A stretch of DNA of 64,000 bases from Sphingomonadaceae bacterium (lineage in GTDB: Bacteria; Chloroflexota; UBA6077), in assembly GCA_050261575.1 (NCBI GenBank), contig JBLNDL010000033.1, positions 1-64,000 on the forward strand, in the 5' to 3' direction. The notes beneath the pieces are model-generated. The model saw only the letters and a program-made list of their open reading frames with translations, did no database searches and was not told the origin of the DNA. Shown piece by piece: positions 36,224 through 54,970 of the stretch. Position 1 is the stretch's first letter, and every line of letters begins with the position of its first letter. The position numbers and the translations under genes were made by a program.

Positions 36224-36533
36224 GGCAGGGGACAAGCCCCTGCCGCCGGGTTCGAGTGTAAGGGCCGCTGCTCCTGGTGCGCGGACGTCCCCCGCAATTG
36301 GATGCGAGCTAGGGATTCCTGACCGCGTATTCGCTGGCGTCACGTATACTTGCCGTGCCGGCCATCAGGAAGAGGGACCTGTGAACGATATCCCACTTCC
36401 CAGACGCAAGCGGATCCGTCTGGACAATCGGCACCACGCCGATGAGGTGGCGGTCTGTTCGGTCACTCGCCGGACAGGTGGGGGACAGCGAACGGCAGGA
36501 CGGCGACCAGGACCATCTCGGAGGGAAGCTTAG

Positions 36534-37559
36534 ATGGCTGAACACTCAGCACTCAGGACCCAGCACTCAGGACCCGGCGCTCAAGACTCGACGCTGGCGG
36601 ACGCCGCCGAGGCGGCCAGGCTGAAGCTGAGCGCCGTCGTGGAGGCATTGGGACAGGTAATCGTGGGGCAGATGGAGGTGGTGGACCGGCTGGTCACCGC
36701 GCTGGTGGCAGGCGGCCACGTCCTGCTGGAGGGGGTGCCGGGACTGGGCAAGACCCTCCTGGTGCGCACCCTGGGGCAGGTGACCGGCCTCAGCTTCAGC
36801 CGGATCCAGTTCACCCCCGACCTGATGCCCGGCGACATCACCGGCACCCAGATCTTCGACCGGGAGAGCGGCGGTCTGCGCTTCGTGCCGGGACCCATCT
36901 TTGCCAACCTCCTGCTGTCCGACGAGGTCAACCGGGCGACGCCGCGGACCCAGAGCGCCCTGCTGGAGGCGATGCAGGAGCACACCGTCACGGCCGGAGG
37001 GGAGAGCCACCCATTGCCGGAGCCCTTCTTCGTCCTCGCCACCCAGAACCCCCTGGAGATGGAGGGCACCTATCCCCTGCCGGAGGCGCAACTCGACCGT
37101 TTCCTCTTCAAGCTGCTGGTGCCCTTCCCCCCGGACGAGGAGCTGGCGGAGATCGCCGAGCGGACGACCGGCGTGCCCCGCCCCGCGCCCCCTCGGGTGA
37201 TGGAGCCGCACGACCTGGTGGAGGCGATGGATCTCGCGCGGCAGGTGGTTGTGGCGCCGCACGTCCTGCAGTACGCGGTGCGGCTGATCGGGGCGACCCA
37301 TCCGGACAGATCGCCGGTGCCCGAGGTGCGACGGTTCGTGCGGTACGGCTCCAGCCCCCGCGGACTGCAGGCCCTGCTTCTGGGCGCCAAGGTGGCGGCA
37401 CTGCGAGCGGGTAGGTGGAACGTGGCGTTCTCGGATCTGGATCAGATGGCCCTGCCCGCCCTGCGCCACAGGATGATCCTCCAGTTCGAGGCCACGGCGG
37501 AGGGGGTCACGGCCGACGATCTGGTCGGGCGCATTCTGGCGGCCGTCTCCCGAGAGTGA
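36534..37559 (+). CDS. moxR: MoxR-family AAA+ ATPase
   Basis: HVLLEGVPGLGKT, RIQFTPDLMP, DEVNR, ATQNP, LPEAQLDRF. Confidence 0.96.
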   Translation: MAEHSALRTQHSGPGAQDSTLADAAEAARLKLSAVVEALGQVIVGQMEVVDRLVTALVAGGHVLLEGVPGLGKTLLVRTLGQVTGLSFSRIQFTPDLMPGDITGTQIFDRESGGLRFVPGPIFANLLLSDEVNRATPRTQSALLEAMQEHTVTAGGESHPLPEPFFVLATQNPLEMEGTYPLPEAQLDRFLFKLLVPFPPDEELAEIAERTTGVPRPAPPRVMEPHDLVEAMDLARQVVVAPHVLQYAVRLIGATHPDRSPVPEVRRFVRYGSSPRGLQALLLGAKVAALRAGRWNVAFSDLDQMALPALRHRMILQFEATAEGVTADDLVGRILAAVSRE

Positions 37560-37562
37560 TGA

Positions 37563-38465
37563 GTGATGCATGATGAGTGGAGACCAGGCTTTCCGGGTTG
37601 GTCGCCGGGTTTCCGAGCCGCACTGGAGAGGATGGCCATCGCGCCTCGACGGCCGGCCCGCGGCCAGCACTCCGGCGCCGTCCGGTCTCGGGTGCGGGGC
37701 CGCGCCCTGGAGTTCGCCGACTACCGTGCCTACTGCCCGGGCGACGATCCCAGGCTGGTGGACTGGCGGGCCTACACCCGGCTGGGACGGCTTTACCTGA
37801 AGCAGTACGAGGAGGATCGCTCCCGCACCATCACGCTGCTGGTGGATGTCAGCGCCTCCCTGGACTGGGGCGAGGGTGAATCCCACAAGGGGCTCTACGC
37901 CCGGCGCCTCGCGGCGGCTCTGGCCTGGGTAGCGGTCAGCCGCCACGAGTCGGTGCGGGCGTTCCTGCTGCGCGACGGCGCCGCCGCGCCGCTGCCGCCC
38001 GCCTCCAGCCGGGATGGCGCCGCCGTGCTCTTCGGCCGGCTCGCCTCCGTCCGGGAGGGCGGGCGGACGGACCTCGGCGCAGCCGTTCGGCGGGCGCTGG
38101 TGGGGCCGGTGGCCGGCCCGGTCCTGCTGCTCACCGACCTTCTCGATCCCTCCTGGCCCGAGGCGCTGGATGCGCTCTCGGTGGGGGGAGAGGGGACCCT
38201 GCTGCAACTGCTGTCGCCGGCCGAGTGGCAGCCTCCGTTGGGCGAGGAGGTGGAGCTGCAGGACGCCGAGAGCGGGGAATTGCGTCCCACCCGTTTGGGG
38301 CCGATAGAGCTGGCAGCCTACCGGGAGCGGTTGGAGGTTTTCCTGGCCCAGGTGCGCAGCCACTGCCACCGCCTCGGGATCCTTCCAGTCGCCTTGAACA
38401 CCGCCACACCGCTGCAGGAGGCAGTGCTGCGGGAGCTGCCCTCCTTGGGCGTGTTGAGGGGGTGA
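37563..38465 (+). CDS. DUF58 domain protein
   Basis: 'EFADYRAY.PGDD.R.VDW', DVSAS; follows moxR. Confidence 0.92.
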   Translation: MMHDEWRPGFPGWSPGFRAALERMAIAPRRPARGQHSGAVRSRVRGRALEFADYRAYCPGDDPRLVDWRAYTRLGRLYLKQYEEDRSRTITLLVDVSASLDWGEGESHKGLYARRLAAALAWVAVSRHESVRAFLLRDGAAAPLPPASSRDGAAVLFGRLASVREGGRTDLGAAVRRALVGPVAGPVLLLTDLLDPSWPEALDALSVGGEGTLLQLLSPAEWQPPLGEEVELQDAESGELRPTRLGPIELAAYRERLEVFLAQVRSHCHRLGILPVALNTATPLQEAVLRELPSLGVLRG

Positions 38466-38469
38466 TGCG

Positions 38470-40293
38470 ATGCCGCTCCTCGAGTCCCCGGGCGCGGTGT
38501 GGCTGCTGGTCACCATTCCGGCCATCGTTCTGCTCTGGATCCTGCGGCCGCTACGCCCGCGGCTGCGGGTACCCAGCCTCTTCCTTTGGCAGGGCTCACC
38601 CGCCGAGCGGCGGTCTGCCCGACCCTGGCAGCGGCTCCGCAACCACCCGCTGCTCTGGATCCAGCTTGCCATCGCTCTGCTGCTGGCGCTGGCCGCCGCT
38701 CGCCCGTTCCTGCCGGCCGACGCCGCCGGCCAGCACCTGATGGTGCTGCTGGACGCCTCCGGCAGCATGAGGGCGCGGGACGTCCCAACGGACCGATTCG
38801 CGGCGGCGCGGTCGACCGTCGTGGATCTGGCCCGAGGGCTGGGGCCTGGCCAGGAGATGACCGTGCTGCGGCTGGACGAACAGCCCAGGGTGCTGGTGGC
38901 TGGTGCGCGCGGCGCCGACCAGGTGGAGCAGGCGCTGTCGGGCGAGCGTCCATCCTACGGGCCGCCCGACGTGGCCGCGGCGCTCGCCCTGGCGGCGGGT
39001 CTTACCCGGGGGCCGGCGGAGTGGGTGCTGGTGGGCGACGGCGGGCTGACCATTCCTGAGGGCGTCCATCGACCGCCAGACACGGGATTCCGCTTCCTGC
39101 CGGTCGGAAGCCCGGCAGGCAACGTCGCCATCACGGGCATGGCGGTGAGGCAAGAGGGGGAGAATCGCGTCCTGCAGGTAGGGCTTCGCAACTACGGCGG
39201 GGGGCCGGCGGTCGGCCGGCTGCAACTGCTGGCCGAGGGCCAGATGGTGGGGGCTCGGGAGTGGCGCCTCGAGGCCGGAGCAGAGGATTACGTCTCCTGG
39301 GGACACCTGCTGTTGGGTCCGGCGTGGTACGAGGCCCGGCTCTCCGGGGTGCCCCAGGGATCGAACGCCCTGGAGCAGGACGACGCGGCCTGGGTGGCGG
39401 CGGCCGACGCTTCGGAGGAGGTGCGGGTGCTGCTGGTGAGCGCGGGCAACGGCTTCCTGGAGCGTATGCTCAGCGTCCACGGAAACGTGAGGGCTTTCAG
39501 CGCGTCCCCGTCCGATTGGCCGGGGGTCGCCTCCCAAGAAGCCGCCTACCCCCTGACGGTGCTGGATCGCCTTTGGCCAGAGCGATGGCCCTCGGGGAGC
39601 GCCCTGGTGGTGGGAGCGCCCGTCGGCGAGTCCTTCCGGCCTCGCGAGGTCTGGCCCCGAACGGACCATCCCCTCCTCCGCTACGTCGACTGGTCGGAGG
39701 TCCGGGTGGGGGAGGCGCGCCGCGCGACGCTGGGCGACGACTGGGAGACGGTGATCGACTCGGACGGCGGACCGCTGCTCGCGGTGCGCACCGATGGCGG
39801 CCGCCGGCAGGCGGTGCTGACGTTCGAGCTGAGTCAGTCGGACCTTCCCCTGCGTCCGGCCTTCCCGGTCCTGATGGCCAACCTGATGGAGTGGCTGCTT
39901 CCTCGACCCGAGACGGCGCCGCGCACGGTCGCGCCCGGCGCTGCCCTCTCGCCGGAGCCGTCGCCGCTGGCGCAGCAACTGTGGGCGGAGGCCGGCGACG
40001 GCACCCGCTACGATCTGGCGCCTCCGTGGCCGCCCCGACCCTTCCGGCCGCCCGAACCCGGCCTGTACAGCGTCGTCCAATCCTGGGAGGGGGAGCGCCA
40101 GCGCTCCCTGCTGGTGGCGAGCGGCTATCACCCTCAGGAGGCGGACTTGAGCCCTCGGTCGATCGACATTCCGGCGGCGAAGGGAGAGGTGTCGGCCCCA
40201 GCCAGGGGCGCCCTCCCCTTCTGGCCCTGGCTGGTTGCCGGGGTGGTGGGGCTTGCACTGGTCGAATGGTGGGTGGATGCGCGTGGACGGTAG
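38470..40293 (+). CDS. BatA N-terminal + vWA domain membrane protein
   Basis: 'PSLFLW', 'LLLALAAARP', DASGSM MIDAS, C-terminal TM ending EWW. Confidence 0.88.
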   Translation: MPLLESPGAVWLLVTIPAIVLLWILRPLRPRLRVPSLFLWQGSPAERRSARPWQRLRNHPLLWIQLAIALLLALAAARPFLPADAAGQHLMVLLDASGSMRARDVPTDRFAAARSTVVDLARGLGPGQEMTVLRLDEQPRVLVAGARGADQVEQALSGERPSYGPPDVAAALALAAGLTRGPAEWVLVGDGGLTIPEGVHRPPDTGFRFLPVGSPAGNVAITGMAVRQEGENRVLQVGLRNYGGGPAVGRLQLLAEGQMVGAREWRLEAGAEDYVSWGHLLLGPAWYEARLSGVPQGSNALEQDDAAWVAAADASEEVRVLLVSAGNGFLERMLSVHGNVRAFSASPSDWPGVASQEAAYPLTVLDRLWPERWPSGSALVVGAPVGESFRPREVWPRTDHPLLRYVDWSEVRVGEARRATLGDDWETVIDSDGGPLLAVRTDGGRRQAVLTFELSQSDLPLRPAFPVLMANLMEWLLPRPETAPRTVAPGAALSPEPSPLAQQLWAEAGDGTRYDLAPPWPPRPFRPPEPGLYSVVQSWEGERQRSLLVASGYHPQEADLSPRSIDIPAAKGEVSAPARGALPFWPWLVAGVVGLALVEWWVDARGR

Positions 40294-40338
40294 ACGAGGA
40301 TCGAGGACCGAGGTCTCGGGACTGGGGGGCGCGCCGCG

Positions 40339-43128
40339 ATGAACCCCCTCGGTCCGCTGCCCTCGGTCCTGTTCACCGATCCGCTGTGGCTGCTGGCGCT
40401 CCCGCCGGCCGCCGCCCTGCTGGTCGTGGCGAGGCTGCCCTGGTGGAGGGCGGCGAGAAGGGCCGGAAAGGCCGCGCTGCGCCAGGAGGCCCGACGGCTG
40501 GGGTTGCGCCTGGCTTGGATCGCCCTGCTGCTGCTGGCCCTATCCGGCCTCACCCTCACCCGGCCTCTGGATCGCCAGGCCCTGCTGTTCGTGGTGGACG
40601 CGTCGGCCAGCGTGGTGGCGGTGCGGGACCAGGCAGAGGCCGCCGTGAGGGCCGCTGCGAGCCGGATGCGGGACGGCGACCTGTTGGGGGTGGTCGCCGC
40701 CGCGGCAGGCGCCCGGGTGGAGGAGGTCCCCACGGACGAACCCCTCTTCGACCGGCTCTCCGTCTCCCTGCCGGACACCGCCACCGACCTGGCGGCAGGG
40801 CTGCGCCTGGCGGGCGCGCTGCTTCCCGAGGGGTACGCTGGCCGGCTGGTGGTGGCCTCCGACGGACGGCAGACTCGCGGAGACGCCCTGGCCGCGGCCC
40901 GGGACCTGGCTGCCAGAGGGATCGTGGTGGACGTGCTTCCCCTCGGTACCGCCGCCGCTCCAGACCTGAGGCTGGAATCCGTGGCGCTGCCGGAGACTGC
41001 CTACAGGGGCGAGGTTGCCACCCTGACGGCCCGGCTGCACTCCGACCGCTCCACCACCGCCACGCTCCGGGTGTACAGGGACGACCAACTGCTGCTGGAG
41101 CGGAGGGTGGATTTGCGCGCTGGGCGGCAGGAGGTGGTGCTCTCGGTGCCCGTCGGCGATCCTGGGCTGCACCGGTATCGGGTGGATCTGTCCTCGCCGG
41201 ACCCGTCGGCGGACGGCACCACGGCGAACAACGCCCTGGGGGCCATCCAGCGGGTCGTCGGCCCGCCCAGGGTGCTGGTGGTCGCCTCTTCCCCCGAGGA
41301 GGCGGGGATGCTGCCCAGCGCGCTCTCGGCCGGTGGGGCCGAGGTGAGCGTGGTCGGTCCGGCGGGGGTGCCGGCCGACCTGGCGGGGTGGGCCCGCTAC
41401 GACTCCGCCGTCCTGGTGGACGTGCCCGCCGAGTCGCTGCCCGCGGGGACGATGGACCTGCTGGAGAGGTACGTGCGGGACATGGGGCGGGGGCTGGTGA
41501 TGACCGGCGGACCCGACAGCTTCGGACCCGGCGGCTACGCCGACACGCCAGTGGAGCGGGCTCTACCGGTGTACATGGATCTGCGGGGGCGTGGGCGGCA
41601 GCCGAGGGTCGCCCTGGCGCTGGTGATCGACAAGTCCGGCAGCATGTCAGGTGCCAAGATGGAGATGGCCAAGGAGGCTGCCGCGCGCAGCGTAGGGCTG
41701 CTACGCCCCGGCGACCGTGCCGCCGTGCTCGCGTTCGACTCGGTGCCGCAGTGGGTGGCGCCGCTGACGCCGGTGGAGGAGCGGGAGAGTCTGGAGCAGG
41801 CTATCGGGAGCATCTACGCAGCGGGTGGGACCGAGATCTACCCAGCGCTGGCGGCCGGGTTCGACGCACTGCGGGATGTGGAGGCCGATGTCAAGCATCT
41901 TCTGCTGCTAACGGACGGGCGATCGGGCTCCGGGGGCGACTACGGGGCGCTGGTGCGGGAGATGAGGGACGCTAGGGTGAGCCTCTCCACCGTCGCGGTC
42001 GGCAGCGACGCCGATACAGGACTGCTGGAGGCGATGGCTCGGGCTGGGCGGGGTCGCTACCACTTCACGGCCGACCCGGCGGACATCCCGCAGATCTTCA
42101 TGCGCGAGACCCTGATGGCCACCCGCACGCTGCTGGTCAACAGGCGCTTCTACCCTGCCGCCGCGTCGGAGGGTCCGTTGCTGAGGGGCGTGCAGGTGGT
42201 GCCCCCCCTGGACGGCTACGTGGCCGTGACGGCCAAGGAGCAGGCCGAGGTGGTGCTGGTCTCGCCGGAGGGCGATCCGGTGCTGGCCACCTGGCAGTAC
42301 GGGCTCGGTCGGGCCGCCGCCTGGACTCCGGACGTGGCCGGCCGCTGGAGCGGCGCGTGGGCGGGGATCCCCACCACCACCATCCTCTGGGGCAACCTGC
42401 TCTCCTGGCTGCTGCCACCCCAGGAGGCCGGGGAGCTGTCGGTTCGGGTCGATGCCGAGGGGGACACGGGCTTCGAGGTGGTGGCGGAGAACCGCGGGGG
42501 ATGGGAGGAGCTTCGATCGACCCGCGCTACGCTGCTGGGTCCCGATGGACGGCGGCGGGAGATGGAGCTTTCTCCTGCGGGGCCGGGCCGCTACAGGGCG
42601 CGAGGGGAGATGCCCGAGCCGGGGGCGTACGTGGTGCAGGTGAGCCAGACCGTCGATGGCGGCGAGTTGCGTGGCGAGGCAGGGTGGGTGGCGCCATACC
42701 CCGCAGAGTACCGCGAGGTGGGGGTGGACCACGCCTTCCTGAGGCAGTTGGCGGCCGCGGGTGGGGGCGAGCTGCTGGGTAAGCCGGAGGAGGCCGCGGA
42801 GCCGCGTGGCCGTACGGCCGTCTCGCGCTGGCCCGGCTGGCCGTTCCTGATAGCGCTGGCTGCCATCCTCTGGCCCCTGGAGATCGCTGCCCGCCGCCTG
42901 GTGGTGCCGGCGGTGGCGCGGGGACGCGGGGAGGCGGGAACAGGCACACTCCCTCTCCCTCTGGGAGAGGGCCAAGGTGAGGGAAAGGACGCTGGGGACC
43001 GCAGATCCCCTCTCCCACTCCGAGAGGGTGAGGGTAAGGGCCGAGGGTCTGCGCCCGCCCTGGACACGGCGGGGCGGCTGCTGGAGCGCAAGCGCGCCCT
43101 GCGGGAGGGGCGGAGGGAGAAGGGTTAG
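40339..43128 (+). CDS. Double-vWA protein with an inserted GATase1-like domain
   Basis: DASAS and DKSGS MIDAS motifs; 'GG..SFG.GGY..TP.E..LPV'; terminal TMs. Confidence 0.88.
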   Translation: MNPLGPLPSVLFTDPLWLLALPPAAALLVVARLPWWRAARRAGKAALRQEARRLGLRLAWIALLLLALSGLTLTRPLDRQALLFVVDASASVVAVRDQAEAAVRAAASRMRDGDLLGVVAAAAGARVEEVPTDEPLFDRLSVSLPDTATDLAAGLRLAGALLPEGYAGRLVVASDGRQTRGDALAAARDLAARGIVVDVLPLGTAAAPDLRLESVALPETAYRGEVATLTARLHSDRSTTATLRVYRDDQLLLERRVDLRAGRQEVVLSVPVGDPGLHRYRVDLSSPDPSADGTTANNALGAIQRVVGPPRVLVVASSPEEAGMLPSALSAGGAEVSVVGPAGVPADLAGWARYDSAVLVDVPAESLPAGTMDLLERYVRDMGRGLVMTGGPDSFGPGGYADTPVERALPVYMDLRGRGRQPRVALALVIDKSGSMSGAKMEMAKEAAARSVGLLRPGDRAAVLAFDSVPQWVAPLTPVEERESLEQAIGSIYAAGGTEIYPALAAGFDALRDVEADVKHLLLLTDGRSGSGGDYGALVREMRDARVSLSTVAVGSDADTGLLEAMARAGRGRYHFTADPADIPQIFMRETLMATRTLLVNRRFYPAAASEGPLLRGVQVVPPLDGYVAVTAKEQAEVVLVSPEGDPVLATWQYGLGRAAAWTPDVAGRWSGAWAGIPTTTILWGNLLSWLLPPQEAGELSVRVDAEGDTGFEVVAENRGGWEELRSTRATLLGPDGRRREMELSPAGPGRYRARGEMPEPGAYVVQVSQTVDGGELRGEAGWVAPYPAEYREVGVDHAFLRQLAAAGGGELLGKPEEAAEPRGRTAVSRWPGWPFLIALAAILWPLEIAARRLVVPAVARGRGEAGTGTLPLPLGEGQGEGKDAGDRRSPLPLREGEGKGRGSAPALDTAGRLLERKRALREGRREKG
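42951..43040. repeat. CCCTCTCCC...GAGAGGG REP-like palindromes inside the 3' end of the vWA gene
   Basis: Two tandem copies; a related inverted copy lies at about 58383-58415. Confidence 0.6.
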
Positions 43129-44138
43129 ACGGGGCGCAGACACCTGGTGTCACGGTCGAGCAAACCCGCCAACTGCCGGGCGGCCTCGTCCGGATCCGTT
43201 CCCGTTTGCAGTCGGTAGCAGTCGCAGGATGCCGCCGTGTCCATCATCGTTTCGAAGTGATCCGTCGCCAGGCCGCGGTTCGCGGGCGGCATGCTGTGCT
43301 CCAGCAGGGCGAGGAACGCCTCGGACTTCCCCATCGGCTGGAGGAGGCTGGTGGGGGTTCGTGCGATGCTCGGGAACACCAGCAGTCGGGGCCGGGCCTG
43401 CTCGGCGAGACAGCCGGGGAAGAGGGCGTCGGCGGGGAATGAGTACTTGTTCCTCTCGTTGGGGGCGTGCCCTGCCAGGAATGCCAGCTCCCGGAAGAAG
43501 CCCAAACCATCGGCGCAGACGTTGATGTCCTCGGGGAAGGCCAGCACCTGAACCCCTCCCTCACGCTTCGTGAGAAGGGGCATGTCGTCGGAGAGGAGCC
43601 GCAGGCCGGCCCGCAGTAGGGCTATCGAGAGGGTGGACTTGCCGCTGCCGGGCAGGGCAGGCAGTATCAGGGCGTGTCCGTTCGACTCCAGGGCCGCGCC
43701 GTGGATGGGATACAGCCCTCGCAGACGGAGGAACTCCAGTACCATCGGCAGGATGGCGAAGTGCTGGATCGACCACAGCGCACCCGCGCGCTCGCGGACC
43801 ACGTACACCGCCATCCGACGGGCGTGGAAGTCGGCAACGCTGAGGGAGAGCCCGCGAGCCTCCAGGAAGAGCCGGCCGTCCAGGGCGCTGTGGCGAAGCC
43901 CGCCCTGCTCGTTCACCACGGTCGCATCGGGCGGCACGATCAGCGGGAGCGACTCGACCACTTCCATCTGGCAGTTCAGTGTCTCCCGCTTGGGCGCCCC
44001 CGGAGCCGCCTCGGCATACCGGTGGAACAGCCCGTCCATCGCCTCGGCCAGGTGAGGGTGGTTCGCCCATGCCTCGATCCGCAGCCCGTGCACGCAGTAC
44101 GTCAGACCCTCCAGTGTCGTGACCCTGGCCGATCGCAT
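43125..44138 (-). CDS. HprK-related kinase (RiPP-associated type)
   Basis: IHGAA, Walker A 'PGSGKST', 'LLSDD' motif; immediately downstream of the precursor genes. Confidence 0.85.
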   Translation of the reverse strand: MRSARVTTLEGLTYCVHGLRIEAWANHPHLAEAMDGLFHRYAEAAPGAPKRETLNCQMEVVESLPLIVPPDATVVNEQGGLRHSALDGRLFLEARGLSLSVADFHARRMAVYVVRERAGALWSIQHFAILPMVLEFLRLRGLYPIHGAALESNGHALILPALPGSGKSTLSIALLRAGLRLLSDDMPLLTKREGGVQVLAFPEDINVCADGLGFFRELAFLAGHAPNERNKYSFPADALFPGCLAEQARPRLLVFPSIARTPTSLLQPMGKSEAFLALLEHSMPPANRGLATDHFETMMDTAASCDCYRLQTGTDPDEAARQLAGLLDRDTRCLRPV

Positions 44139-44289
44139 CCCCTCGTTCCTCCCGCGGAGTGTTCACGGATGGCGAGAGCCGATCGCACGGACGGCCGGCC
44201 GGTGGACGGCCCGACCCGTGCTGCCCTCGCCCATCGCTCTGGATCGATAGAATTCGGCCGGGGGTTACCCCCGGCCGGTGGCGGACCCG

Positions 44290-44385
44290 CTAGTAGTGGT
44301 TGATCGAGTCGTAGTCGTTGAACAGGGCCGTCAGGCCGCTGGGCTTCCCGAGGGACATCGGTCGGAGCGATACGTATCTCTTCAT
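44290..44385 (-). CDS. Putative RiPP precursor A2: MKRYVSLRPMSLGKPSGLTA-LFNDYDSINHY
   Basis: 31-aa ORF with AAAGAGGA SD; leader paralogous to A1; not in the ORF track. Confidence 0.7.
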   Translation of the reverse strand: MKRYVSLRPMSLGKPSGLTALFNDYDSINHY

Positions 44386-44474
44386 GTCGCATCCTCTTTC
44401 TCTGGCGCAGCGAGTCCGCCGGGCAGCCGGTCGGGCAGCCCGACGGCCTCGCCTTCGCTAGCCCCGACGACTGT

Positions 44475-44564
44475 CTACCAACCACCGTTGTAGGGGATGG
44501 TGGCCGTCAAGCCGCTCAACTTGCCCAGCAGCGCGAGGCGCGGCGATACGTAGCTCCTCTTCAC
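44475..44564 (-). CDS. Putative RiPP precursor A1: MKRSYVSPRLALLGKLSGLTA-TIPYNGGW
   Basis: 29-aa ORF, GTG start after AAAGGAGGTG; lasso-type leader YxxPxLxxxGxxxxxT. Confidence 0.8.
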   Translation of the reverse strand: MKRSYVSPRLALLGKLSGLTATIPYNGGW

Positions 44565-44961
44565 GAATCTCACCTCCTTTCTCGTCCCTATGCTTGGATA
44601 GCCGAGGGCGCCCGTCTCCAAAGTGGAGAGGGTCGCGGAGCGTGGATCCGCACCGGCGGTTCGCGCCTCCGAGTTGGGGGACACCACGTTGGAGTGCATC
44701 GTGTCTCCCCTCGCAACCCCCTCGGCCATGGTCCGACCCTCGCCGCCAAGGGGCCGGCTCGGCCGTCCGGATCGGCTCTCGACAGCGGGTACAACCGGTA
44801 GGGGTGGCTGCCCAGCGTACCGACCCGCCGGTTGCCGCGCCACTCTAGCTGGGGCCGATGAATCCAGCATTAATCGGCCGAGCGGTATTGTGTCAACCGT
44901 GTAAGCACTCACCACGCGCCGATTTCATCTCCCGTTCAATTCCCTGGACTAGTCTGGAGCC

Positions 44962-45984
44962 GTGAAGAAGGCGATCGAAGTCAGAGACCTGTCCAAGAGC
45001 TACCCGAAGCCCATGAGCTTTCGGGAGATCCTCCGGCATCGCAGGTGGCGATCGAAGACGGATGCCCTGCGGGGGGTCGGCTTCCACGTGGCCGAGGGAG
45101 AGGTGTTCGGCCTGCTGGGCCCCAACGGAGCGGGGAAGACCACCCTGATCAAGATCCTCTGTACCCTCGTCCTTCCGACCGAGGGGTCGGCCTCCGTCAA
45201 CGGCTTCGACGTGGTTCGGGACCCTGCGGCCGTGCGGAGGAGCATCGGATACGTGGTTGCCGACGAGCGCAGCTTCTACTGGCGGCTGACGGGACGCCAG
45301 AACCTGCGCTTCTTTGCCACGCTGAACAACCTGATCGGCAAGGAGGGAGAGCGGCGAGTGGAGGAGGTCGCGGATCTGGTCGGCCTTCGCGAGGAGCTGG
45401 ACACGCCCTTCCTCCACTACTCCACGGGCACCAAGCAGAAGATGGCCATCGCCCGGGGGATGCTCACCGATCCGCCCATCCTGCTGCTGGACGAGCCCAC
45501 CCGCAGCCTGGACCTGCCGACGGCCAGAGCCGTACGCGGTTTCGTTAAGAGCGGGCTTGCTGCCCAGGGGAGAACGGTGCTGATAGCCACCCACAACATG
45601 GAGGAGGCGTCGGAGCTGTGCCAGCGGGTGGCGGTGATCGACCGGGGGCGGCTCAGGGCGTGGGGGACACCGGCGGAGATCGCCCAGGCCGTGGACTGGA
45701 CGGGGAAGAAGGTACTCCTGGAGGTAGACGGGTGGACGGAGGGGGTCGCGACTCGGGTGCGCCTCCTGCCGGGGGTGCGGGAGTTGGCACTGCTGCCGCG
45801 GTCCTGCGGCGAGAACGGCAGGGCGCTGAGGCTACGGATCGGCCTGCGGGAGGGCGCCGATTCCGTCGCCGAGGTGATAGAGACGGTGGTGCGCTCGGGC
45901 GGCCGGATCGTCTCGTTCCAGGAGGAGGCGCCCACCCTGGCCGACCTCTTCCTCCGCATCACAGAGGAGGAGCCCAGCCCGTGA
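44962..45984 (+). CDS. ABC exporter ATP-binding protein
   Basis: GPNGAGKT, YSTGTKQ, LLLDEP, ATH. Confidence 0.94.
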   Translation: MKKAIEVRDLSKSYPKPMSFREILRHRRWRSKTDALRGVGFHVAEGEVFGLLGPNGAGKTTLIKILCTLVLPTEGSASVNGFDVVRDPAAVRRSIGYVVADERSFYWRLTGRQNLRFFATLNNLIGKEGERRVEEVADLVGLREELDTPFLHYSTGTKQKMAIARGMLTDPPILLLDEPTRSLDLPTARAVRGFVKSGLAAQGRTVLIATHNMEEASELCQRVAVIDRGRLRAWGTPAEIAQAVDWTGKKVLLEVDGWTEGVATRVRLLPGVRELALLPRSCGENGRALRLRIGLREGADSVAEVIETVVRSGGRIVSFQEEAPTLADLFLRITEEEPSP

Positions 45985-46796
45985 CGCTGCTGCTCCACAA
46001 GGTGGCGGCCTTCGTGGCTCGGGACCACACCGAGGCCACCAGCTACCGCTTCGCCTTCGCCATGCGGTACGTCAACGCCCTCTTCACGGTGCTCACCTTC
46101 TACTTCGTCTCCGGGCTGGTCGAGGGCGCAGCTACCCCCCACCTGGCCGAGTACGGCGGGGACTACTTCGCCTTCGTCCTTGTGGGCATCGCGCTGTCCG
46201 GCTACCTGAGGACCTCCCTGACCAACTTCTCCTACCTGATACGGAACGCCCAGATGACGGGCACCATCGAGGCGTTGCTCGTGACACAGACGGAGCTGCC
46301 GACGGTCGTCCTGGCCTCCTCCGTGTACAGCTTCGTCGCCACCTCCACCACGGTGCTGCTCTACCTGGCGGTGGGTGCCCTGCTGTTCGGTGTGAACCTG
46401 AGCGGGGCCAACTTCCTCGCCGCGCTGCTGGTGCTGCTCCTCTCCATCGCCGCGTTCAGCAGCATCGGGATCGCCTCGGCCTCCTTCATCGTGGTCTTCA
46501 AGAAGGGAGATGCGGTGCTCGGCGCGATCACCCAGATCTCCATGCTGCTCGGAGGGGTCTACTATCCCCTCTCCATCCTGCCCGTCTGGCTCCAGGGAGC
46601 CGCGGCCCTGCTTCCCATCACCTACTCCCTGCGGGCGATGCGCTATGCGCTGTTCAGACCGGAGGAGATGGGGTCGGTGGCGCTGGATGTGGCCATCCTG
46701 GCCGCATTCGCGGCCGTTGCCCTGCCGTCGAGCGTGTGGCTCTTCGGCAGGGCAGTGCGGATGGCGAAGTCCTCGGGCAGCCTGGGCCACTACTAA
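45981..46796 (+). CDS. ABC-2 permease
   Basis: About 6 TMs, 'GVYYP...LP.WLQ......P.TY'; GTGA overlap with the ATPase stop. Confidence 0.9.
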   Translation: MTLLLHKVAAFVARDHTEATSYRFAFAMRYVNALFTVLTFYFVSGLVEGAATPHLAEYGGDYFAFVLVGIALSGYLRTSLTNFSYLIRNAQMTGTIEALLVTQTELPTVVLASSVYSFVATSTTVLLYLAVGALLFGVNLSGANFLAALLVLLLSIAAFSSIGIASASFIVVFKKGDAVLGAITQISMLLGGVYYPLSILPVWLQGAAALLPITYSLRAMRYALFRPEEMGSVALDVAILAAFAAVALPSSVWLFGRAVRMAKSSGSLGHY

Positions 46797-47074: not shown

Positions 47075-47761
47075 CTAGTGGGTATGGGCTGGTGCGACCT
47101 GCCCCTCGCCCGTGGTGTGGCCGCCCTCCGCCGGGGCACCCTCCCCGTGGACTGCGTTCCCTTCGGCGGCCTCGAAAAGGGCGAGGACGTACTTCTGGAA
47201 CAGCAGTTCGGCCTCTACCTTCTCACGGTTTGCCGCCACAGAGCCCTCCTTGGCCGCCAGCTCCCTGGCCTCCGCCACGGCGTGGAACTTCTCGGCGATC
47301 CCGTCCTTCACCGCCCGGTCCAGCAGGGCGTAGGTCTCGTCCAGGGAGCCAGTCTCCAGCGCCTTGTCGGCGGCGGTGAGCGCCGGGCCAAAGTCGCTCT
47401 CCGTCTTCAGGCCGGTGTAGGCAGCCCCCTCGCCGTGCCGATGCAGCCGGACGGCGGTCTCGTAGAAGAAGCGCTCTGCCAGCTTCTGGGCCTCGCCGCC
47501 CAGCCGGCGTACCTCCTGAGTGTGCTGGAAGACCGCGGAAAGCTCGGCCTCCGACTCGGGCTGGACGTATGGCAGGACCAGGTCGACGTCGTTCGCTTCC
47601 AGCGCCTTCTGCGCGGCGGCGACCACCGGACCGTTCACGGAGTCGCAGTGGGCCTCGGCGGATGGTGCCGGGGCGAAGGCCAAGGCGGTGACGCCGATCG
47701 CCAGGGCGAAGGTTAGAGCGCCCAGCTTGAGTCTCAGGGCCTTTCTGGTCAGGTGCAGCAT
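47075..47761 (-). CDS. Secreted protein, DUF6448-like
   Basis: Signal peptide then 'AHCDS.NGPVV', 'F.ET.VRLHR.GEGA.YTGLK'; His-rich tail. Confidence 0.75.
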   Translation of the reverse strand: MLHLTRKALRLKLGALTFALAIGVTALAFAPAPSAEAHCDSVNGPVVAAAQKALEANDVDLVLPYVQPESEAELSAVFQHTQEVRRLGGEAQKLAERFFYETAVRLHRHGEGAAYTGLKTESDFGPALTAADKALETGSLDETYALLDRAVKDGIAEKFHAVAEARELAAKEGSVAANREKVEAELLFQKYVLALFEAAEGNAVHGEGAPAEGGHTTGEGQVAPAHTH

Positions 47762-47875
47762 CTCGATTGTCTCCTTTTCTGCTCTTGTCGTTTTGTGCCG
47801 GCGGTGAACCGGTTGCGGATCGTCGCCGGACCCTTTCCCTGTGCTGCATTCTGCACCGTCGCAGGAAGACCTTCA

Positions 47876-47889
47876 TTGACGTGGATCAA
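47876..47889 (-). promoter_or_regulatory. Crp/Fnr-family box TTGAC-N4-ATCAA
   Basis: One mismatch from the FNR consensus; centred about -41.5 relative to a CAGAAT -10 at 47853-47848. Confidence 0.65.
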
Positions 47890-48035
47890 GTCTTCTGAGT
47901 TCATCCTCGATGCGCGAGGCCCCTGGAGAAGCTCCAGGGGCCTCTATGTGAAGGGGAGGAGGGATCCTCCCCGTCGATTGACGTCTCTTGGACGGACGAG
48001 CGGGCTGGCCGGACGCCTGCTGCCTCCGGAGCAGC

Positions 48036-49259
48036 CTACCCGTCCAGCAGTCGCTTCTCCCCTTCCAGCGCTCGGATGCCGGTGGCGTCCTGTGTCACCT
48101 CCAGGCAGCCCAGGTACTTCCCCTCCCTGCGGACCGCGTAGTAGCGGATCACGATGAAGCGCCCGCCAGACTGGATCCAGAACTCGGCGGTGTCGCGCCT
48201 GCCGCTCCGGAAGTCCTCCAGGATCCGGTTCACCACGTGGACGCTCTTCTCCGGGTGGCACTGCTGCACCTTGCGACCGATGATCGCCGTCGCTCGGGGG
48301 AAGACCCTCTCCTTGCCGTTGCTGAAGTAGCGCACTTGGTCCTGATCGTCCACGAAGGTGATATCCACGGGCAGGCTGTTCAGTATCGGCTCCAGGGCGG
48401 CTAGCGGTAGGCTCCCGGTCTCGAAGGAGACCACGTCCTCTCTCCCCGCCTCGGCGGATGTGCGCGGCGCCTCCTGTCGGGTCTGTCCGGTCGTGGGCGG
48501 CACGACCTTCCAGTAGCCGATCTCACCGAACTGCCGGATGGTATTCTCCCACTCCTCCTCCGTGAGCACCCTGAGGGCCGTGGGGAAGAGGATGTTGTTC
48601 TCCTTGTGGAAGTGGCTCGCGAGCATGGTCGCCAGCGCCTCCGCCGCCTCCTTTAGCCGCGGGACGAGGGTTGCCAGAGATGTCCCGTCGGCAGCCTCGA
48701 CGGCCGCGAAGAACCCCTTCTTGATCGCCCTGATCCTGTCGTGCTCGCTCCACATGATGGCCGGTGGCTGTACGATCCCGTGCTTCTCCAGGTAGGGGAA
48801 GAGGACGTTCTCCTCGCGCAGGTAGTGGTTCTCCGACTCCTTGAACTCGCCGGCGATCGACCTCAACCGCTGTAGCGGTGCGGACGCCGCCTCCTGATCG
48901 GGGGCAGCCGCGATCTCCTCGACCACCGCTTCGAGGTCGGCGGCCAGATCCAGGAGAAGCTCGTGCTCCCTCAGGAGGATCTGGATCGGGTGATGCGGAG
49001 GCGCAGCGGCCTGCTCTCTCTCCAGCGCTTCCTGGAACACGGCCAGGTGGACGTCGCAGAGCCGCTCCAGCTCCTCCCTGGGCATCCCCTCGTCGACCAG
49101 CTCGCCCTCGATCCGCGCGATCTCCTCCGCAGTAAGGGTCCGCAATAGCCCCGCGGCTTCCTTCTTGGCGTTTTCCGGATCGGTGCCCTCGTGCAGTGCC
49201 CTGATCAGTCGCTTCAGCGTGGTCTTCCTGCCGATTGCATCGGCAAGCAGCTCGCTCAT
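48036..49259 (-). CDS. DUF438 / hemerythrin / PAS domain protein
   Basis: LCDVH, HY.REEN.LFP, MWSEHD, KENNILFP; C-terminal PAS 'ITFVD..D.VRYF...IIGR.VQ.CHP'. Confidence 0.88.
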   Translation of the reverse strand: MSELLADAIGRKTTLKRLIRALHEGTDPENAKKEAAGLLRTLTAEEIARIEGELVDEGMPREELERLCDVHLAVFQEALEREQAAAPPHHPIQILLREHELLLDLAADLEAVVEEIAAAPDQEAASAPLQRLRSIAGEFKESENHYLREENVLFPYLEKHGIVQPPAIMWSEHDRIRAIKKGFFAAVEAADGTSLATLVPRLKEAAEALATMLASHFHKENNILFPTALRVLTEEEWENTIRQFGEIGYWKVVPPTTGQTRQEAPRTSAEAGREDVVSFETGSLPLAALEPILNSLPVDITFVDDQDQVRYFSNGKERVFPRATAIIGRKVQQCHPEKSVHVVNRILEDFRSGRRDTAEFWIQSGGRFIVIRYYAVRREGKYLGCLEVTQDATGIRALEGEKRLLDG

Positions 49260-49401
49260 GGCATTCTCTCCTTCGACTTCGATGTCCAGACGGCCCCGTC
49301 TGGGCCATCCGCTCGTGCTGGCCATGAGGATGGGGTAGGGAACGCGAGGTGTCCGCGACTTTTGTCACAAGCCGCGTCGCTCGGTCGTGGGGGGCGTGGC
49401 G

Positions 49402-50604
49402 CTACCGTATGGAGCGCACGTAGCGGAGCGCCCTGATCAACCGGACCGGCTCCAGCAGTCTGTAGCTGTGTCTGAGATGGCGCGGCCTCGGCATCAGGAG
49501 CTGCAGGAGGGATCCGAGACTGGTTCGGTCGGTGGAAACCAGCTTGGCCAGGGTCGAGGGGAGCGGAGCGGGATCCTCGTCGTTGGCGAGAACACGCTCC
49601 AGGGCCGCTGCGGCAAGTGCTGGCCGCAGGGGTTTGCCGCCGGGGCTCTCGATCAGGTCCGGGGGCAGTTCCGTCCCGAAGAGGGCAGCGGCGACGGCCA
49701 GTGAGTATCGAAGGCAGAGGGCTGCCCGGAGGCGACCGGCCTCGCGGGCGAGCGCTTCCCAGTCCAGCCGGTCGCGGTGCCGCTCCACCAGCTCGTGGAG
49801 GTCACTCAGTCGCGACAGCCCCACACCGAAGCCGTCGTTGTAGGCCATGTGGGTGCAGAGGTGGATGACCTGGTGGATGGGGCTGAGGACACGCCCCTCG
49901 ACCCCGTCCACTGGGATGGCCTCGGAGTGCTGCAGCATCTCCGCCACGTCGACGTGGAAGGGTGCGCGCTTGCGTGCCAGGCCCCAGTGGATCTCGACCA
50001 CGGCGGCTCGGCCACCCCCATCGCGCAGGCGATACTTCTTCTCGTACCACTCAGGTGGCCACTTGCCGGCCGGCCACTCCTCCTCCGCCGGAAGGTAGCC
50101 CAGGGACAGCAGGACCCGCTCGGCGGCCGCGCGATCCTCTCTCTGAACCAGCAGATCGAGGTCGCGTAGCTGCCTCAAGGCGGGGTCCGGGTAGACGGTG
50201 TGCAGGAGGGCCGCGCCCTTCAGCAGGACGGCGGCGATCCCTTCGGTGGCGAGCCCGTCGACGACGCGTCGCAGCTCCCGCTGCCAGAGCAGGGTGGAGA
50301 TGCCGTTCAGGAGGTAGGCGGCGTGGAGTCGGGACAGGGCGCCTGCTGGGACCTGGGGGGCGAAGGGTGGCAGCGAGAGGGTGCGGTAGACCAGTGGCGC
50401 GACTCGATGCCCCTCCGCTCGGGATACCAGCCGCTCCCAATCGAGCGGCTCCGCCAGCAGCAGCTCGACCCGTTCGCGAGCGGCCCCATCCAGGTGGATG
50501 CGAGCAGCGGCGGCGAGCAGCCTCTCCTCCGCGGGCCTGGAGGCGAGGAGGGCTCGCAACTCCTCGATCGGCCTGTCCGTGCTAGGCGCGGTGGCACTAC
50601 CCAT
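49402..50604 (-). CDS. Nucleotidyltransferase (NTP_transf_5-like)
   Basis: 'LLKG..L...YP....R...DLDLLV', 'VEIHW'; overlaps the B2 gene end. Confidence 0.88.
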   Translation of the reverse strand: MGSATAPSTDRPIEELRALLASRPAEERLLAAAARIHLDGAARERVELLLAEPLDWERLVSRAEGHRVAPLVYRTLSLPPFAPQVPAGALSRLHAAYLLNGISTLLWQRELRRVVDGLATEGIAAVLLKGAALLHTVYPDPALRQLRDLDLLVQREDRAAAERVLLSLGYLPAEEEWPAGKWPPEWYEKKYRLRDGGGRAAVVEIHWGLARKRAPFHVDVAEMLQHSEAIPVDGVEGRVLSPIHQVIHLCTHMAYNDGFGVGLSRLSDLHELVERHRDRLDWEALAREAGRLRAALCLRYSLAVAAALFGTELPPDLIESPGGKPLRPALAAAALERVLANDEDPAPLPSTLAKLVSTDRTSLGSLLQLLMPRPRHLRHSYRLLEPVRLIRALRYVRSIR

Positions 50605-51100
50605 TCCCGTGGTCCCAACTCGGGCGAGACAGGGGCTCCGAGCCGCCTCGACGCGCCTTCGGCGATGCCGGGGGAGGCTCGGGCAGATGCCAGACCTGGA
50701 GGTAGTCCACCTCCGGCGCGCCACGTTCCATGAAGGGTCGATCGTCGAGCACCAACCACCCGTGGGCGTCCACCGACCCGTCGGGGTTTCGCCGGATCCC
50801 GAAGGCGATCCGCACGGGGTAGCCCAACCTGGTGCAGAAGTAGTAGAGGGTGAGAGAGCGTAGCAGGCAGTGGCCGAAGAAGAGGATGGGGGCGCGCCGC
50901 ATCACCCCGTCCACGTGGCGCACCACCCTCCGGACTTCCGAGATCTCCACGGTGGGCGGTGTGGTGGTGGGCGTGAGCCACCCCACCACTCTCCTCACCT
51001 TCACGAAGTGAAGGGCGGCGTTTAGCCCCACGAGCAGTCCGACGATCCGCAGCGTGAGCCCGAGGTCTGCCCGAGCGACCGCTCTCACCTCTCCGATCAT
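50597..51100 (-). CDS. Lasso peptide B2-type leader peptidase (transglutaminase-like)
   Basis: 'CLLRSL' catalytic Cys and 'AHGW' His; follows the RRE gene. Confidence 0.88.
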   Translation of the reverse strand: MIGEVRAVARADLGLTLRIVGLLVGLNAALHFVKVRRVVGWLTPTTTPPTVEISEVRRVVRHVDGVMRRAPILFFGHCLLRSLTLYYFCTRLGYPVRIAFGIRRNPDGSVDAHGWLVLDDRPFMERGAPEVDYLQVWHLPEPPPASPKARRGGSEPLSRPSWDHGNG

Positions 51101-51110
51101 TGCCAACCGA

Positions 51111-51380
51111 CTAGACGACCAGTCCCTGCTCTCGCAGCTCGTGGAGCAGCGCCACGACGTCCTGCTCCACCTGTTCGGCAGGGGCGTCGTACTCCTCGGC
51201 GATCCTGGAGGCGATCTCCCCGGCGGTGGCCTGGCCGTCGATCAGTTCCCAGATACGGGTGCCCACCTCGTTCAGGGAGTAGTAGTTCTCGCTCTTCGCG
51301 CTCAGCAGCACCGTCTCCTCGCCCATCTTTCGCCAGACCACGTCGGAGGCTCTGGATGGGACGACGTCTGTACCCTGCAT
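51111..51380 (-). CDS. PqqD-family RiPP recognition element (lasso B1-type)
   Basis: 'ETVLL.....YYSLNEVG.RIWELIDG...I..EYD....V..DV...L..L...GL'; GAGGAGG SD. Confidence 0.92.
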   Translation of the reverse strand: MQGTDVVPSRASDVVWRKMGEETVLLSAKSENYYSLNEVGTRIWELIDGQATAGEIASRIAEEYDAPAEQVEQDVVALLHELREQGLVV

Positions 51381-53737: not shown

Positions 53738-54970
53738 TTATTTCACCAGCACCCGGTGGTACTTCTTCTTGCCCGCCCGGAGGAAGAGGGACCCTTCCAC
53801 CAGGTCGTGGGGGGTAATCACCTGGTCCGCGCTCGCGATGCGGTCGCCGTTGACGTAGGCGCCGCCCTGCTGAATCAACCGCCTTGCCTCGCCACGAGAG
53901 CCGACCAGCCCGACCATGGCGAAGAGTTGAGGAACGGGGATCCCCTCGGCCAACTCCGCCGCCCCGATCTCCGTCGTGGGGGCTCCTTCCAGGGATCCCT
54001 CGCCCCCGCCAAAGAGGGCTCGCGAGGCCGCCTGCGCCTCCTTGGCCGCCTCCTCGCCGTGGGTGATCTTCGTGGCCTCGAAGGCCAGCACCTCCTTGGC
54101 CTTGCGGATGTCCGCTCCCTTCAGCCTTCCCAGAGCCTGCACCTCCTCCATGGGAAGGTGGGTGAAGAGGGCCAGGAAGCGCTCCACGTCTGGGTCCTCG
54201 GTGTTGATCCAGAACTGGTAGAACTGGTACGGCGAGGTCAACTCCGAATCCAGCCAAACCGTTCCCGCCTCGGTTTTCCCCATCTTGGCGCCCGAGGCCG
54301 TGGTGAGGAGGGGGAACACCATGACGTACGCCTGCCCGCCCTCGATCCGGCGAATCAGCTCCGCGCCGGCCAGGCTGTTAGCCCACTGGTCGCTGCCCCC
54401 GCATTGGAGGACGCAGCCGTAGTCCCTGTAGAGCTGGAGGAAGTCGTAAGCCTGGAGAAGCTGGTAGTTGAACTCCACGAAGTTGAGTCCGGCATCCGAC
54501 TCCAGCTTGGTGCGGTAGGTCTCCGTGGCGAGCATCTGGTTGACGCTGAAGTGGACCCCGACGTCTCTCAGGAACTCGATGTACTTCAGCTTCGTCAGCC
54601 ATTCGGCGTTGTTGACCATCAGGGCGCGGCCGTCGGAGAAGTCCAGGTAGCGCTGAAGCTGCCTCTTCAGCCCCTTCAGGTTCTCCTCGATCTGTTCGTA
54701 GGTGAGGACGGGCCTGCTCACTGTTCGGCCTGTGGGGTCGCCGATCAGGCCGGTTCCACCACCCACGAGGGCGATGGGGCGATGGCCGAAGCGCTGCATC
54801 CAGGTGAGCGCCATGATGGTGAGTAGGTGGCCGATGTGGAGGCTGGGGGCCGTGGGATCGTACCCCACGTAGAGGGTGATCGGCCTCTCCAGCGCTAGGC
54901 GCAACCCTTGCTCGTCGGAGACATCCTTGACGAAGCCGCGGGCTGCCAGGACGTCGAACACGTTTGCCAC
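53738..54970 (-). CDS. tyrS: Tyrosine--tRNA ligase
   Basis: YVGYDPTA.SLHIGH, GGSDQW.N, KMGKT, C-terminal S4 domain. Confidence 0.97.
   Translation of the reverse strand: MANVFDVLAARGFVKDVSDEQGLRLALERPITLYVGYDPTAPSLHIGHLLTIMALTWMQRFGHRPIALVGGGTGLIGDPTGRTVSRPVLTYEQIEENLKGLKRQLQRYLDFSDGRALMVNNAEWLTKLKYIEFLRDVGVHFSVNQMLATETYRTKLESDAGLNFVEFNYQLLQAYDFLQLYRDYGCVLQCGGSDQWANSLAGAELIRRIEGGQAYVMVFPLLTTASGAKMGKTEAGTVWLDSELTSPYQFYQFWINTEDPDVERFLALFTHLPMEEVQALGRLKGADIRKAKEVLAFEATKITHGEEAAKEAQAASRALFGGGEGSLEGAPTTEIGAAELAEGIPVPQLFAMVGLVGSRGEARRLIQQGGAYVNGDRIASADQVITPHDLVEGSLFLRAGKKKYHRVLVK

Follow-up and report, generated by a model that had tools for sequence, protein, structure and literature searches.

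A cyclase-free cassette with lasso-type leader processing, an HprK-related kinase, a nucleotidyltransferase and short tyrosine-containing precursor cores

HprK-like kinases paired with NTP transferases are found in several described RiPP clusters. In Bacillota, the lppA-K-B-S-D-N cluster makes linear polyphosphorylated peptides (LPP), and the published account reports that LppK phosphorylates Ser3 of the LppA core, adds up to four phosphates and fails on the S3Y and S3T variants, and that no effect of LppN could be detected in a heterologous host (Popov et al. 2026, PMC13381572). Its authors cast LPPs as a linear analogue of the tailoring found in the Bsf and paeninodin systems. The Bsf cluster of Bradymonas sediminis (bsfA, B1, B2, C, D, K, N) is described as performing RRE-assisted phosphorylation at core position 3 by a kinase, BsfK, that accepts Ser or Thr, not Tyr, and is strictly regioselective for that position (PMC10368454). 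In paeninodin/pseudomycoidin clusters the acceptor is instead a C-terminal Ser, and PsmN is reported to be needed for the addition of a hexose onto the phosphate of the phosphorylated peptide (PMC6993621). A further relative is the fosfazinomycin pathway, in which FzmU is described as forming an N-P bond from a kinase-made triphosphate-like donor (bioRxiv 10.64898/2026.09.23.753898).

Discrete RREs of the lasso type are common outside recognizable lasso clusters; according to the RRE-Finder report about half of lasso-like RREs are without peptidase and cyclase partners (PMC7470986). In a daptide survey, as far as its text goes, nucleotidyltransferases appear only as secondary genes, and five of its supplements contain no match. 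Among the literature covered, mostly titles and abstract openings with few subscription journals, neither a B2-containing, cyclase-free kinase/nucleotidyltransferase cassette nor a phosphotyrosine RiPP was found. Lasso leader peptidases have reportedly been surveyed by Kretsch et al. 2023 (Biochemistry).

The window, that is, the whole stretch of 64,000 nucleotides that was analysed, carries a gene set of this kind together with two very short precursor genes, A1 and A2 (Table 1). On the minus strand the order is RRE, B2, nucleotidyltransferase (NTase), two other genes, A1, A2 and kinase, with the exporter on the plus strand ahead of A1. The genome to which the window belongs comprises 3.72 Mb in 103 contigs and is scored 100% complete and 4.76% contaminated; RRE and B2 are each single-copy in it.

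Table 1. Features of the cassette and its surroundings, in window coordinates
Feature	Position	Strand	Remarks
HprK-related kinase	43125..44138	-	337 aa; His146, Walker A Lys167, Asp184-Asp185 intact
Perfect GC-rich hairpin after A2	44255..44277	-	weak U tail
Precursor A2	44290..44385	-	31 aa, ATG start; degenerate leader
A2 core LFNDYDSINHY	44325-44293	-	11 aa; Tyr5 and Tyr11
Shine-Dalgarno of A2	44392..44399	-	resembles A1 site, weaker
GC-rich hairpin between A1 and A2	44402..44461	-	-44.0 kcal/mol for 44395-44475; role inferred
Precursor A1	44475..44564	-	29 aa, GTG start (read as Met); 21-aa leader and 8-aa core
A1 core TIPYNGGW	44501-44478	-	Tyr4 at 44492-44490
Stretch directly 5' of A1	44553..44816		100% identity in two metatranscriptome contigs; RBS and first 4 codons
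Shine-Dalgarno of A1	44571..44580	-	AAAGGAGGTG, 6 nt upstream of start; near-perfect
ABC exporter ATPase, DrrA-like	44962..45984	+	
ABC-2 permease	45981..46796	+	
NTP_transf_5 (PF14907) nucleotidyltransferase	49402..50604	-	400 aa
Lasso-type B2 leader peptidase	50597..51106	-	NF033537 50.3 bits, cut-off 33
Discrete RRE (PqqD/B1)	51111..51380	-	89 aa; PF05402 84 bits

The catalytic motifs of the cassette enzymes are intact. HprK is the top, if weak, hit of the kinase in sequence searches, and the kinase matches the PEP-carboxykinase fold by structure, a fold that HprK shares. Its His, Walker A and Asp-Asp residues are those that BsfK needs (PMC10368454). The NTase has no solved relative by sequence search; its Lys-Gly and Asp148-x-Asp150 motifs are invariant. 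Cys80, His115 and Asp121 of B2 are likewise invariant in 4 aligned rows, and the closest natural solved relatives of the RRE are lasso and LPP RREs (9x90, 5v1u, 9x8z, 6jx3). AlphaFold models of cassette enzymes are confident (pLDDT 89.5 and 86.6). The NCBIfam HPr-rel-A system also combines an HprK-related kinase (TIGR04352) with a PqqD-type protein (the TIGR04353 chaperone), but the window's kinase and RRE score below both cut-offs (86 bits against 200 and 26.6 against 35, respectively). Elsewhere in the genome there are two more weak PF14907 matches (C57:70422-70898 and C68:603-1145) with no RRE or B2 nearby.

The genes that separate the NTase from the ABC exporter (47075-49325, minus strand) encode a DUF438-hemerythrin-PAS protein and a DUF6448 protein, and look like an unrelated redox or anaerobiosis module; a TTGA-N6-TCAA palindrome at 47876-47889, which we take to be FNR/Crp-like, lies about 115 nt upstream of DUF6448. 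A plus-strand MoxR/VWA operon (34421-43128; AAA ATPase-like ORF, BatA-VWA, VWA-GATase1) converges on the kinase, the stop codons overlapping at 43125-43128. Two genes upstream of the RRE lies a tyrosyl-tRNA synthetase (53738-54970, minus strand), probably by coincidence. It was considered as a resistance copy and discarded, as it is the sole copy in the genome.

Kinase, NTase and permease each belong to a tight group of relatives. Thirteen proteins are close to the kinase, at 54-81% identity, after which identity falls to 28-42%; the relative at 81% bears the name Chloroflexota. For the NTase and the ABC-2 permease there are 8 close relatives each, at 57-73% and 63-89% identity. Contigs of 175649, 18659 and 12232 bp occur in the kinase, NTase and permease lists and one of 7006 bp in two of them, those of kinase and permease, and this recurrence of equal sizes suggests that the genes travel together. 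Three metagenome contigs with close kinases were obtained, one of which (L006) is without DNA upstream of the kinase. The other two, whose kinases are 54-55% identical to that of the window and whose precursor cores measure 8-11 aa, show the same association. L005 carries four precursors, a radical SAM/SPASM enzyme, kinase, RRE, B2 and NTase, and L007 a precursor, kinase, RRE, a second precursor, B2 and NTase. Similar short ORFs beside homologous kinases, to which the preliminary description had looked, are thus present, four times in L005 and twice in L007, along with RRE, B2 and NTase. The same motif scan, run as a control over 157 loci with distant kinases (L008-L164, 1.95 Mb), matched only two: L011, with a Tyr-free 8-aa core beside a 30% identical kinase, and L088, which looks spurious. 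A quick tree of 47 kinases unites the 16 close rows, with no more than 87% SH-aLRT support, and places the kinase of locus L195 outside them.

Beyond these loci, no further close one was found in the genome-contig or viral-contig collections, and the plasmid collection yielded no close locus and 3 distant NTase matches. Whole genomes contained no close kinase besides the window's own, the best distant match reaching E 5e-58 against 7e-167 for self. Distant kinases occur in 1 of 65 other genomes of the class and in 8 of 400 in a sample of the phylum; in other classes the counts are 1/6, 1/21, 0/2, 2/169 and 0/374 genomes. The gene order of the window is a circular permutation of that of L005 and L007, with the break between kinase and RRE, which would fit integration of the cassette from a circle. 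In L005 (120-1863) the four tandem precursors, three of them with cores starting QAYGP, precede the radical SAM/SPASM enzyme, which could cross-link their Tyr-Gly-Pro motif; searched with that enzyme as query, the window's genome contains no homologue of it.

What the precursors share beyond their leaders is a tyrosine. A profile of the eight context-linked precursors (A1 and A2 of the window, four of L005, two of L007) retrieved 45 hits from 1.84 billion representatives, 29 of which are long proteins (264-2697 aa) matched at several short places; these were left out of the core set. The 16 hits of <=199 aa were retrieved and sorted into three query sequences, an over-long call of A1, a one-residue variant of an L007 precursor, a multi-repeat protein, two lasso-compatible precursors (P0167 and P0179, with Asp at 8 or 9, 19-20 aa and no Tyr) and eight new non-lasso precursors. 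The latter, which come without genomic context, and the eight context-linked precursors together give a set of 16 non-lasso cores of 8-25 aa, such as QAYGPIRVIHA (L005), LIYNFRTA (L007) and NFIYKLPGG (P0176). Every one contains Tyr, at position 3-7 in 15 and at position 10 in one. Gly and Leu are found in 13 cores each, Ser in 8, Asn in 7 and Thr in 6; six cores are without any Ser or Thr, none has either at position 3, and three end in Ser.

Tyr thus appears to be the distinguishing feature of the cassette's precursors. The chance that all six independent context-linked cores contain it is small (p about 9e-5 at a Tyr background of 2.4%), three of the L005 cores being near-paralogues. Five of the eight context-free cores were retrieved by a profile whose columns include the Tyr and which hence favours Tyr; in the non-lasso hits aligned over the leader alone, it is present in 3/3 (p about 0.016). 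The preliminary description had called the cores of A1 and A2 unrelated, a view that the common Tyr corrects, and had proposed Asn and an aromatic C-terminus as shared traits. Neither is a family feature: Asn is found in 7/16 cores and a C-terminal Tyr, Trp or Phe in 2/16, both of them the window's (Trp in A1, Tyr in A2). P0157 has a leader identical to that of A1 at 18/21 positions, whereas its core, VPVYSLSG, shares only Tyr4. The combination of conserved leader and fast-changing cores suggests allele-specific signals or antagonists.

The earlier view that neither core fits a canonical lasso holds throughout. The A1 core is without Asp or Glu, the A2 core has Asp only at 4 and 6, and Asp/Glu at position 7-9 followed by a tail is found in none of the eight context-linked cores and none of the 16. 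Nor does the genome encode a lasso cyclase that scores over the cut-off. The best NF033535 score, 239.9 bits against 525, belongs to a glutamine-amidotransferase AsnB whose gene lies amid polysaccharide genes of contig C28 and which is the genome's only asparagine-synthetase homologue over the cut-off. No cyclase is present in the window, L005 or L007 either, the latter two being 4-kb contigs that end inside the NTase, beyond which one could still lie. With neither cyclase nor ring acid, the locus is not a lasso system.

Among the described systems, the cassette resembles in outline the LPP clusters, which as described also dispense with a cyclase, combine a YxxP leader with a discrete RRE as well as an HprK-like kinase, an NTP transferase and an exporter, and are expected to be modified close to the core N-terminus. 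Nevertheless, the cassette is not an LPP, as peptidase, leader, exporter and acceptor all differ. The LPP peptidase is described as a signal peptidase I of archaeal type, whereas the window, L005 and L007 encode lasso B2 and the locus proteins scanned show no match to the signal-peptidase family. The LPP exporter is MsbA-like, in contrast to an ABC-2 permease with a DrrA-like ATPase. The LPP leader reads YxxPxVLxHQxIxFETxxS, whereas the cassette leaders are of the canonical lasso type and have no His-Gln or Phe-Glu-Thr, and the LPP core has 45 aa with Ser3, in contrast to the short cores here, none of them with Ser3.

Similar points set the other systems apart. With Bsf the cassette shares split B1/B2 proteins, a nucleotidyltransferase, a YxxPxL leader and the catalytic residues of the kinase, but Bsf has a cyclase, a ring-forming core and Ile at leader position -2 (PMC10368454). 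Paeninodin/pseudomycoidin clusters also combine a kinase and NTP transferase pair (PsmK, PsmN) with B1, B2 and an ABC transporter, and the Asp-x-Asp motif that PsmN is reported to require, its mutant being dead, is intact in the window's NTase; those clusters, however, keep the cyclase (PMC6993621). Fosfazinomycin biosynthesis (FzmZ/FzmT/FzmU) also has a very short YxxP-leader peptide, no lasso and a discrete RRE adjoining a nucleotidyltransferase (bioRxiv 10.64898/2026.09.23.753898). By analogy the cassette would work like a linear counterpart of Bsf/paeninodin tailoring while belonging to neither LPP nor Bsf/pseudomycoidin.

A reading with about an even chance of being right is that the cassette makes a linear RiPP whose core Tyr is (poly)phosphorylated, then conjugated by the NTase, cleaved and exported. 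The RRE would bind the leader, to judge from motif spacing and homology, and the HprK-like kinase would transfer one or several phosphates to the core Tyr, a probable target since it is the only hydroxyl residue common to all cores. The NTase, if PsmN and FzmU are a guide, would then form a phosphodiester or related bond on the phospho-Tyr, either by attaching a nucleotide or sugar there or by accepting the peptidyl polyphosphate in place of an NTP. B2 would, as its family membership predicts, cut after Thr-2/Xaa-1, i.e. after Ala-1, and the ABC-2 exporter would release a modified peptide of 8-15 residues. A1 would be the main substrate; A2 would be an older duplicate, either less suited as a substrate or in decay. 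In favour, HprK-like RiPP kinases are reported to phosphorylate a hydroxyl residue near the core N-terminus (Ser3 in BsfA and LppA; PMC10368454, PMC13381572). Against this, both BsfK and LppK fail when Ser3 is replaced by Tyr, so that Tyr phosphorylation needs a changed specificity, and none is visible in the sequence. Furthermore, the position of Tyr varies whereas BsfK is strict for position 3, and no more than three loci (window, L005 and L007) were available as DNA.

If the kinase does phosphorylate Tyr, it would represent a new specificity, since the members of its family tested so far do not accept Tyr, and offer a route to phosphotyrosine on peptides that is leader-directed and sequence-tolerant. 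The cassette is a minimal test bed: the core has 8 residues with a single conserved hydroxyl residue, the proteins are four and small, and no cyclase complicates the outcome. It also bears on the role of PsmN/BsfN/LppN-type NTases in RiPP clusters, the PsmN hexose being unexplained and LppN silent in the accounts available, and represents lasso leader-processing machinery without lassos in a poorly known soil lineage, probably Chloroflexota to judge from the name borne by the 81% identical kinase.

An invariant Tyr fits equally well with an unlikely use of the NTase, in which it puts a nucleotide monophosphate directly on the Tyr hydroxyl and the kinase acts later, on the nucleotide or some other group. 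The pol-beta-family enzymes GlnE and GlnD nucleotidylate protein tyrosines, the NTase model resembles the hydroxyl-nucleotidylating ANT(2'')-Ia, LnuA and MenT, and such a route sidesteps the failure of known RiPP kinases on Tyr. These structural matches are nevertheless distant (12-18% identity, TM to the query about 0.3). In addition, PsmN, the one RiPP NTP-transferase case with a characterised product, needs a phosphorylated peptide and adds a hexose, not a nucleotide (PMC6993621).

It is also possible, though doubtful, that Tyr is kept because a receptor, the exporter or a tailoring enzyme recognises it, while phosphate or nucleotide goes to the N-terminal amine, the C-terminal carboxylate or Ser/Thr. 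The variable position of Tyr would fit this, as would the N-P bond made by FzmU (bioRxiv 10.64898/2026.09.23.753898) and a dedicated RRE-dependent peptidase, which implies that the freed N-terminus matters; other hydroxyls are present as well, such as Thr1 in A1 and Ser7 in A2. However, side-chain hydroxyls are the targets of those kinases of this type that have been characterised, and six of the 16 cores have no Ser or Thr. Conservation is also lacking at both terminal residues.

In a bolder scenario, the NTase replaces the lasso cyclase by joining the N-terminal amine freed by B2 to a Tyr-O-polyphosphate, closing a small phosphorus-bridged ring. If true, the kinase would be a RiPP tyrosine (poly)kinase and the product a member of a phosphorus-bridged macrocyclic peptide class. 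HprK-like RiPP kinases are reported to polyphosphorylate (PMC13381572), FzmU provides an N-P bond made from a triphosphate-like donor (bioRxiv 10.64898/2026.09.23.753898), and the distance between Tyr and the cleavage site is 3-7 residues. Yet no precedent was found, ring size and N-terminal residue vary widely, and PsmN and BsfN are described from clusters that keep a cyclase, so the usual job of the family is not ring closure. Ring closure by the NTase is quite improbable.

The leader of A1 has the lasso spacing, which we take to include Gly-8, and matches it at all of Tyr-17, Pro-14, Leu-12, Gly-8 and Thr-2. The BsfA leader is described with the same spacing (PMC10368454). By contrast, A2 matches only at -17, -8 and -2. 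The loss of the leader Pro in A2, noticed at the outset, is confirmed (Leu at -14) and goes further, with Pro replacing Leu at -12 and -6; the other 15 leaders have Pro-14 in 14 cases and an aliphatic residue at -12 and Leu-6 in all. The first nine A2 codons show zero differences in a DNA run of another study (X5 piece 44359-44541), so the changes at -14 and -12 are no assembly error. It is plausible that the A2 leader binds the RRE less well, as had been supposed, since two prolines in the strand expected to pair with the RRE suggest a poor substrate. A complex prediction of RRE and A2, folded without alignments, scored 0.02, which speaks neither for nor against binding. The Bsf system is reported to tolerate single and double substitutions in the leader motif (PMC10368454), so A2 may still be processed.

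Taken by itself, the degenerate A2 leader could indicate that what is left here is a phosphorylated-lasso cluster after loss of its cyclase, with short cores that are truncated and inactive. Unrelated genes do interrupt the cassette, its gene order differs from that of L005 and L007, and the lasso-compatible P0167 and P0179 are among the sequences picked up by the leader profile. Decay is nonetheless very improbable, as the same enzymes, at 54-65% protein identity, are again accompanied by short Tyr cores, catalytic residues are intact and the leaders appear to be under purifying selection. Leader pN/pS is 0.42 between A1 and A2 and below 1 in 10/10 pairs (0.10-0.72), values computed over few codons.

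Both ORFs are present on the minus strand where the preliminary description had placed them. Its remark that each has its own Shine-Dalgarno site also stands, with a strong site for A1 (-17.8 kcal/mol) and a weaker one for A2 (-7.1 kcal/mol) in duplex with a consensus anti-SD strand. So does the similarity of the leaders at the DNA level: the 51-nt stretches that cover the last 17 leader codons are identical at 35/51 positions, a value matched by 2/2000 random window positions (within 60-300 nt). Since the Shine-Dalgarno sites are alike, the duplication took in the ribosome-binding site, and A2 appears to be an old duplicate that has retained ORF, ribosome-binding site and Tyr. That the genes were unannotated is true in part, as gene callers report A2 intact (P0140) and A1 only as an over-long ORF of 84 aa (P0142). 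This longer A1, from an upstream ATG, was rejected; its Shine-Dalgarno site is weak (-7.0 vs -17.8 kcal/mol) and the homologues begin at the short start.

A six-frame leader-motif scan of the whole 3.72-Mb genome gave three matches, of which only A1 combines a compact ORF with a strong Shine-Dalgarno site, and the eight-precursor profile found A1 and A2 alone, both contained in the profile, among 78,018 six-frame genome segments (next E 1.3). A1 is very probably a real precursor of the cassette. That A1 and A2 are chance or untranslated features, for which RNA contigs that fail to span the coding parts could speak, is scarcely credible in view of a near-perfect Shine-Dalgarno site, a motif unique in the genome and homologues conserved next to the same enzymes.

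Two hairpins flank A2. The one between A1 and A2 belongs to no Rfam family. The perfect hairpin after A2 is absent from the terminator-scan calls; with its weak U tail it is likely to be a partial terminator or a 3' barrier that would hold precursor mRNA above kinase mRNA. The 5' leader of A1 has no Rfam match near threshold and folds no better than shuffles (z -0.97), and no promoter passed in a sigma-70 scan. In a metatranscriptome comparison of a 9.2-kb stretch, one contig from each of two runs of one study (X14, 44553-44816; X16, 44554-44773) is identical to the region 5' of A1; the contigs give no strand, and both end four codons into A1. The remaining pieces of both runs are short, divergent matches. 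The runs had been found with a query that includes this same region, and they give a weak hint that the precursor transcript is the abundant part of the locus.

Further loci display other combinations of these parts. L174 (G090:C24, 66-9333) has a kinase, RRE, B2 and NTase plus another set of RRE, B2 and kinase, glycosyltransferases and a sugar transferase being interspersed among them; neither precursor nor cyclase was found in its 12 kb. Two genomes from a single family carry Cys/Ser-rich precursors with a YQAPKL leader in the vicinity of an RRE and a pair of kinases (L176, 15231, minus strand; L179, 4718, plus strand). L181 (G018:C579, 8962-12939) encodes a lasso-like leader followed by a repetitive 28-aa core rich in Lys, Glu and Asp, next to an HprK-like kinase, an RRE and an ORF that looks ATP-grasp-like by eye, and is possibly a graspetide-type variant. 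In the 199-aa protein P0151 a unit of lasso-like leader, short core and SDxRLKxDIxPL-like segment is repeated. Finally, L195 (G440:C261, 9238-12269 and 14282-16753) holds two cyclase-free RRE/B2/kinase/NTase cassettes on one 16.8-kb contig, one of them with a precursor that ends in the tripeptide FSF.
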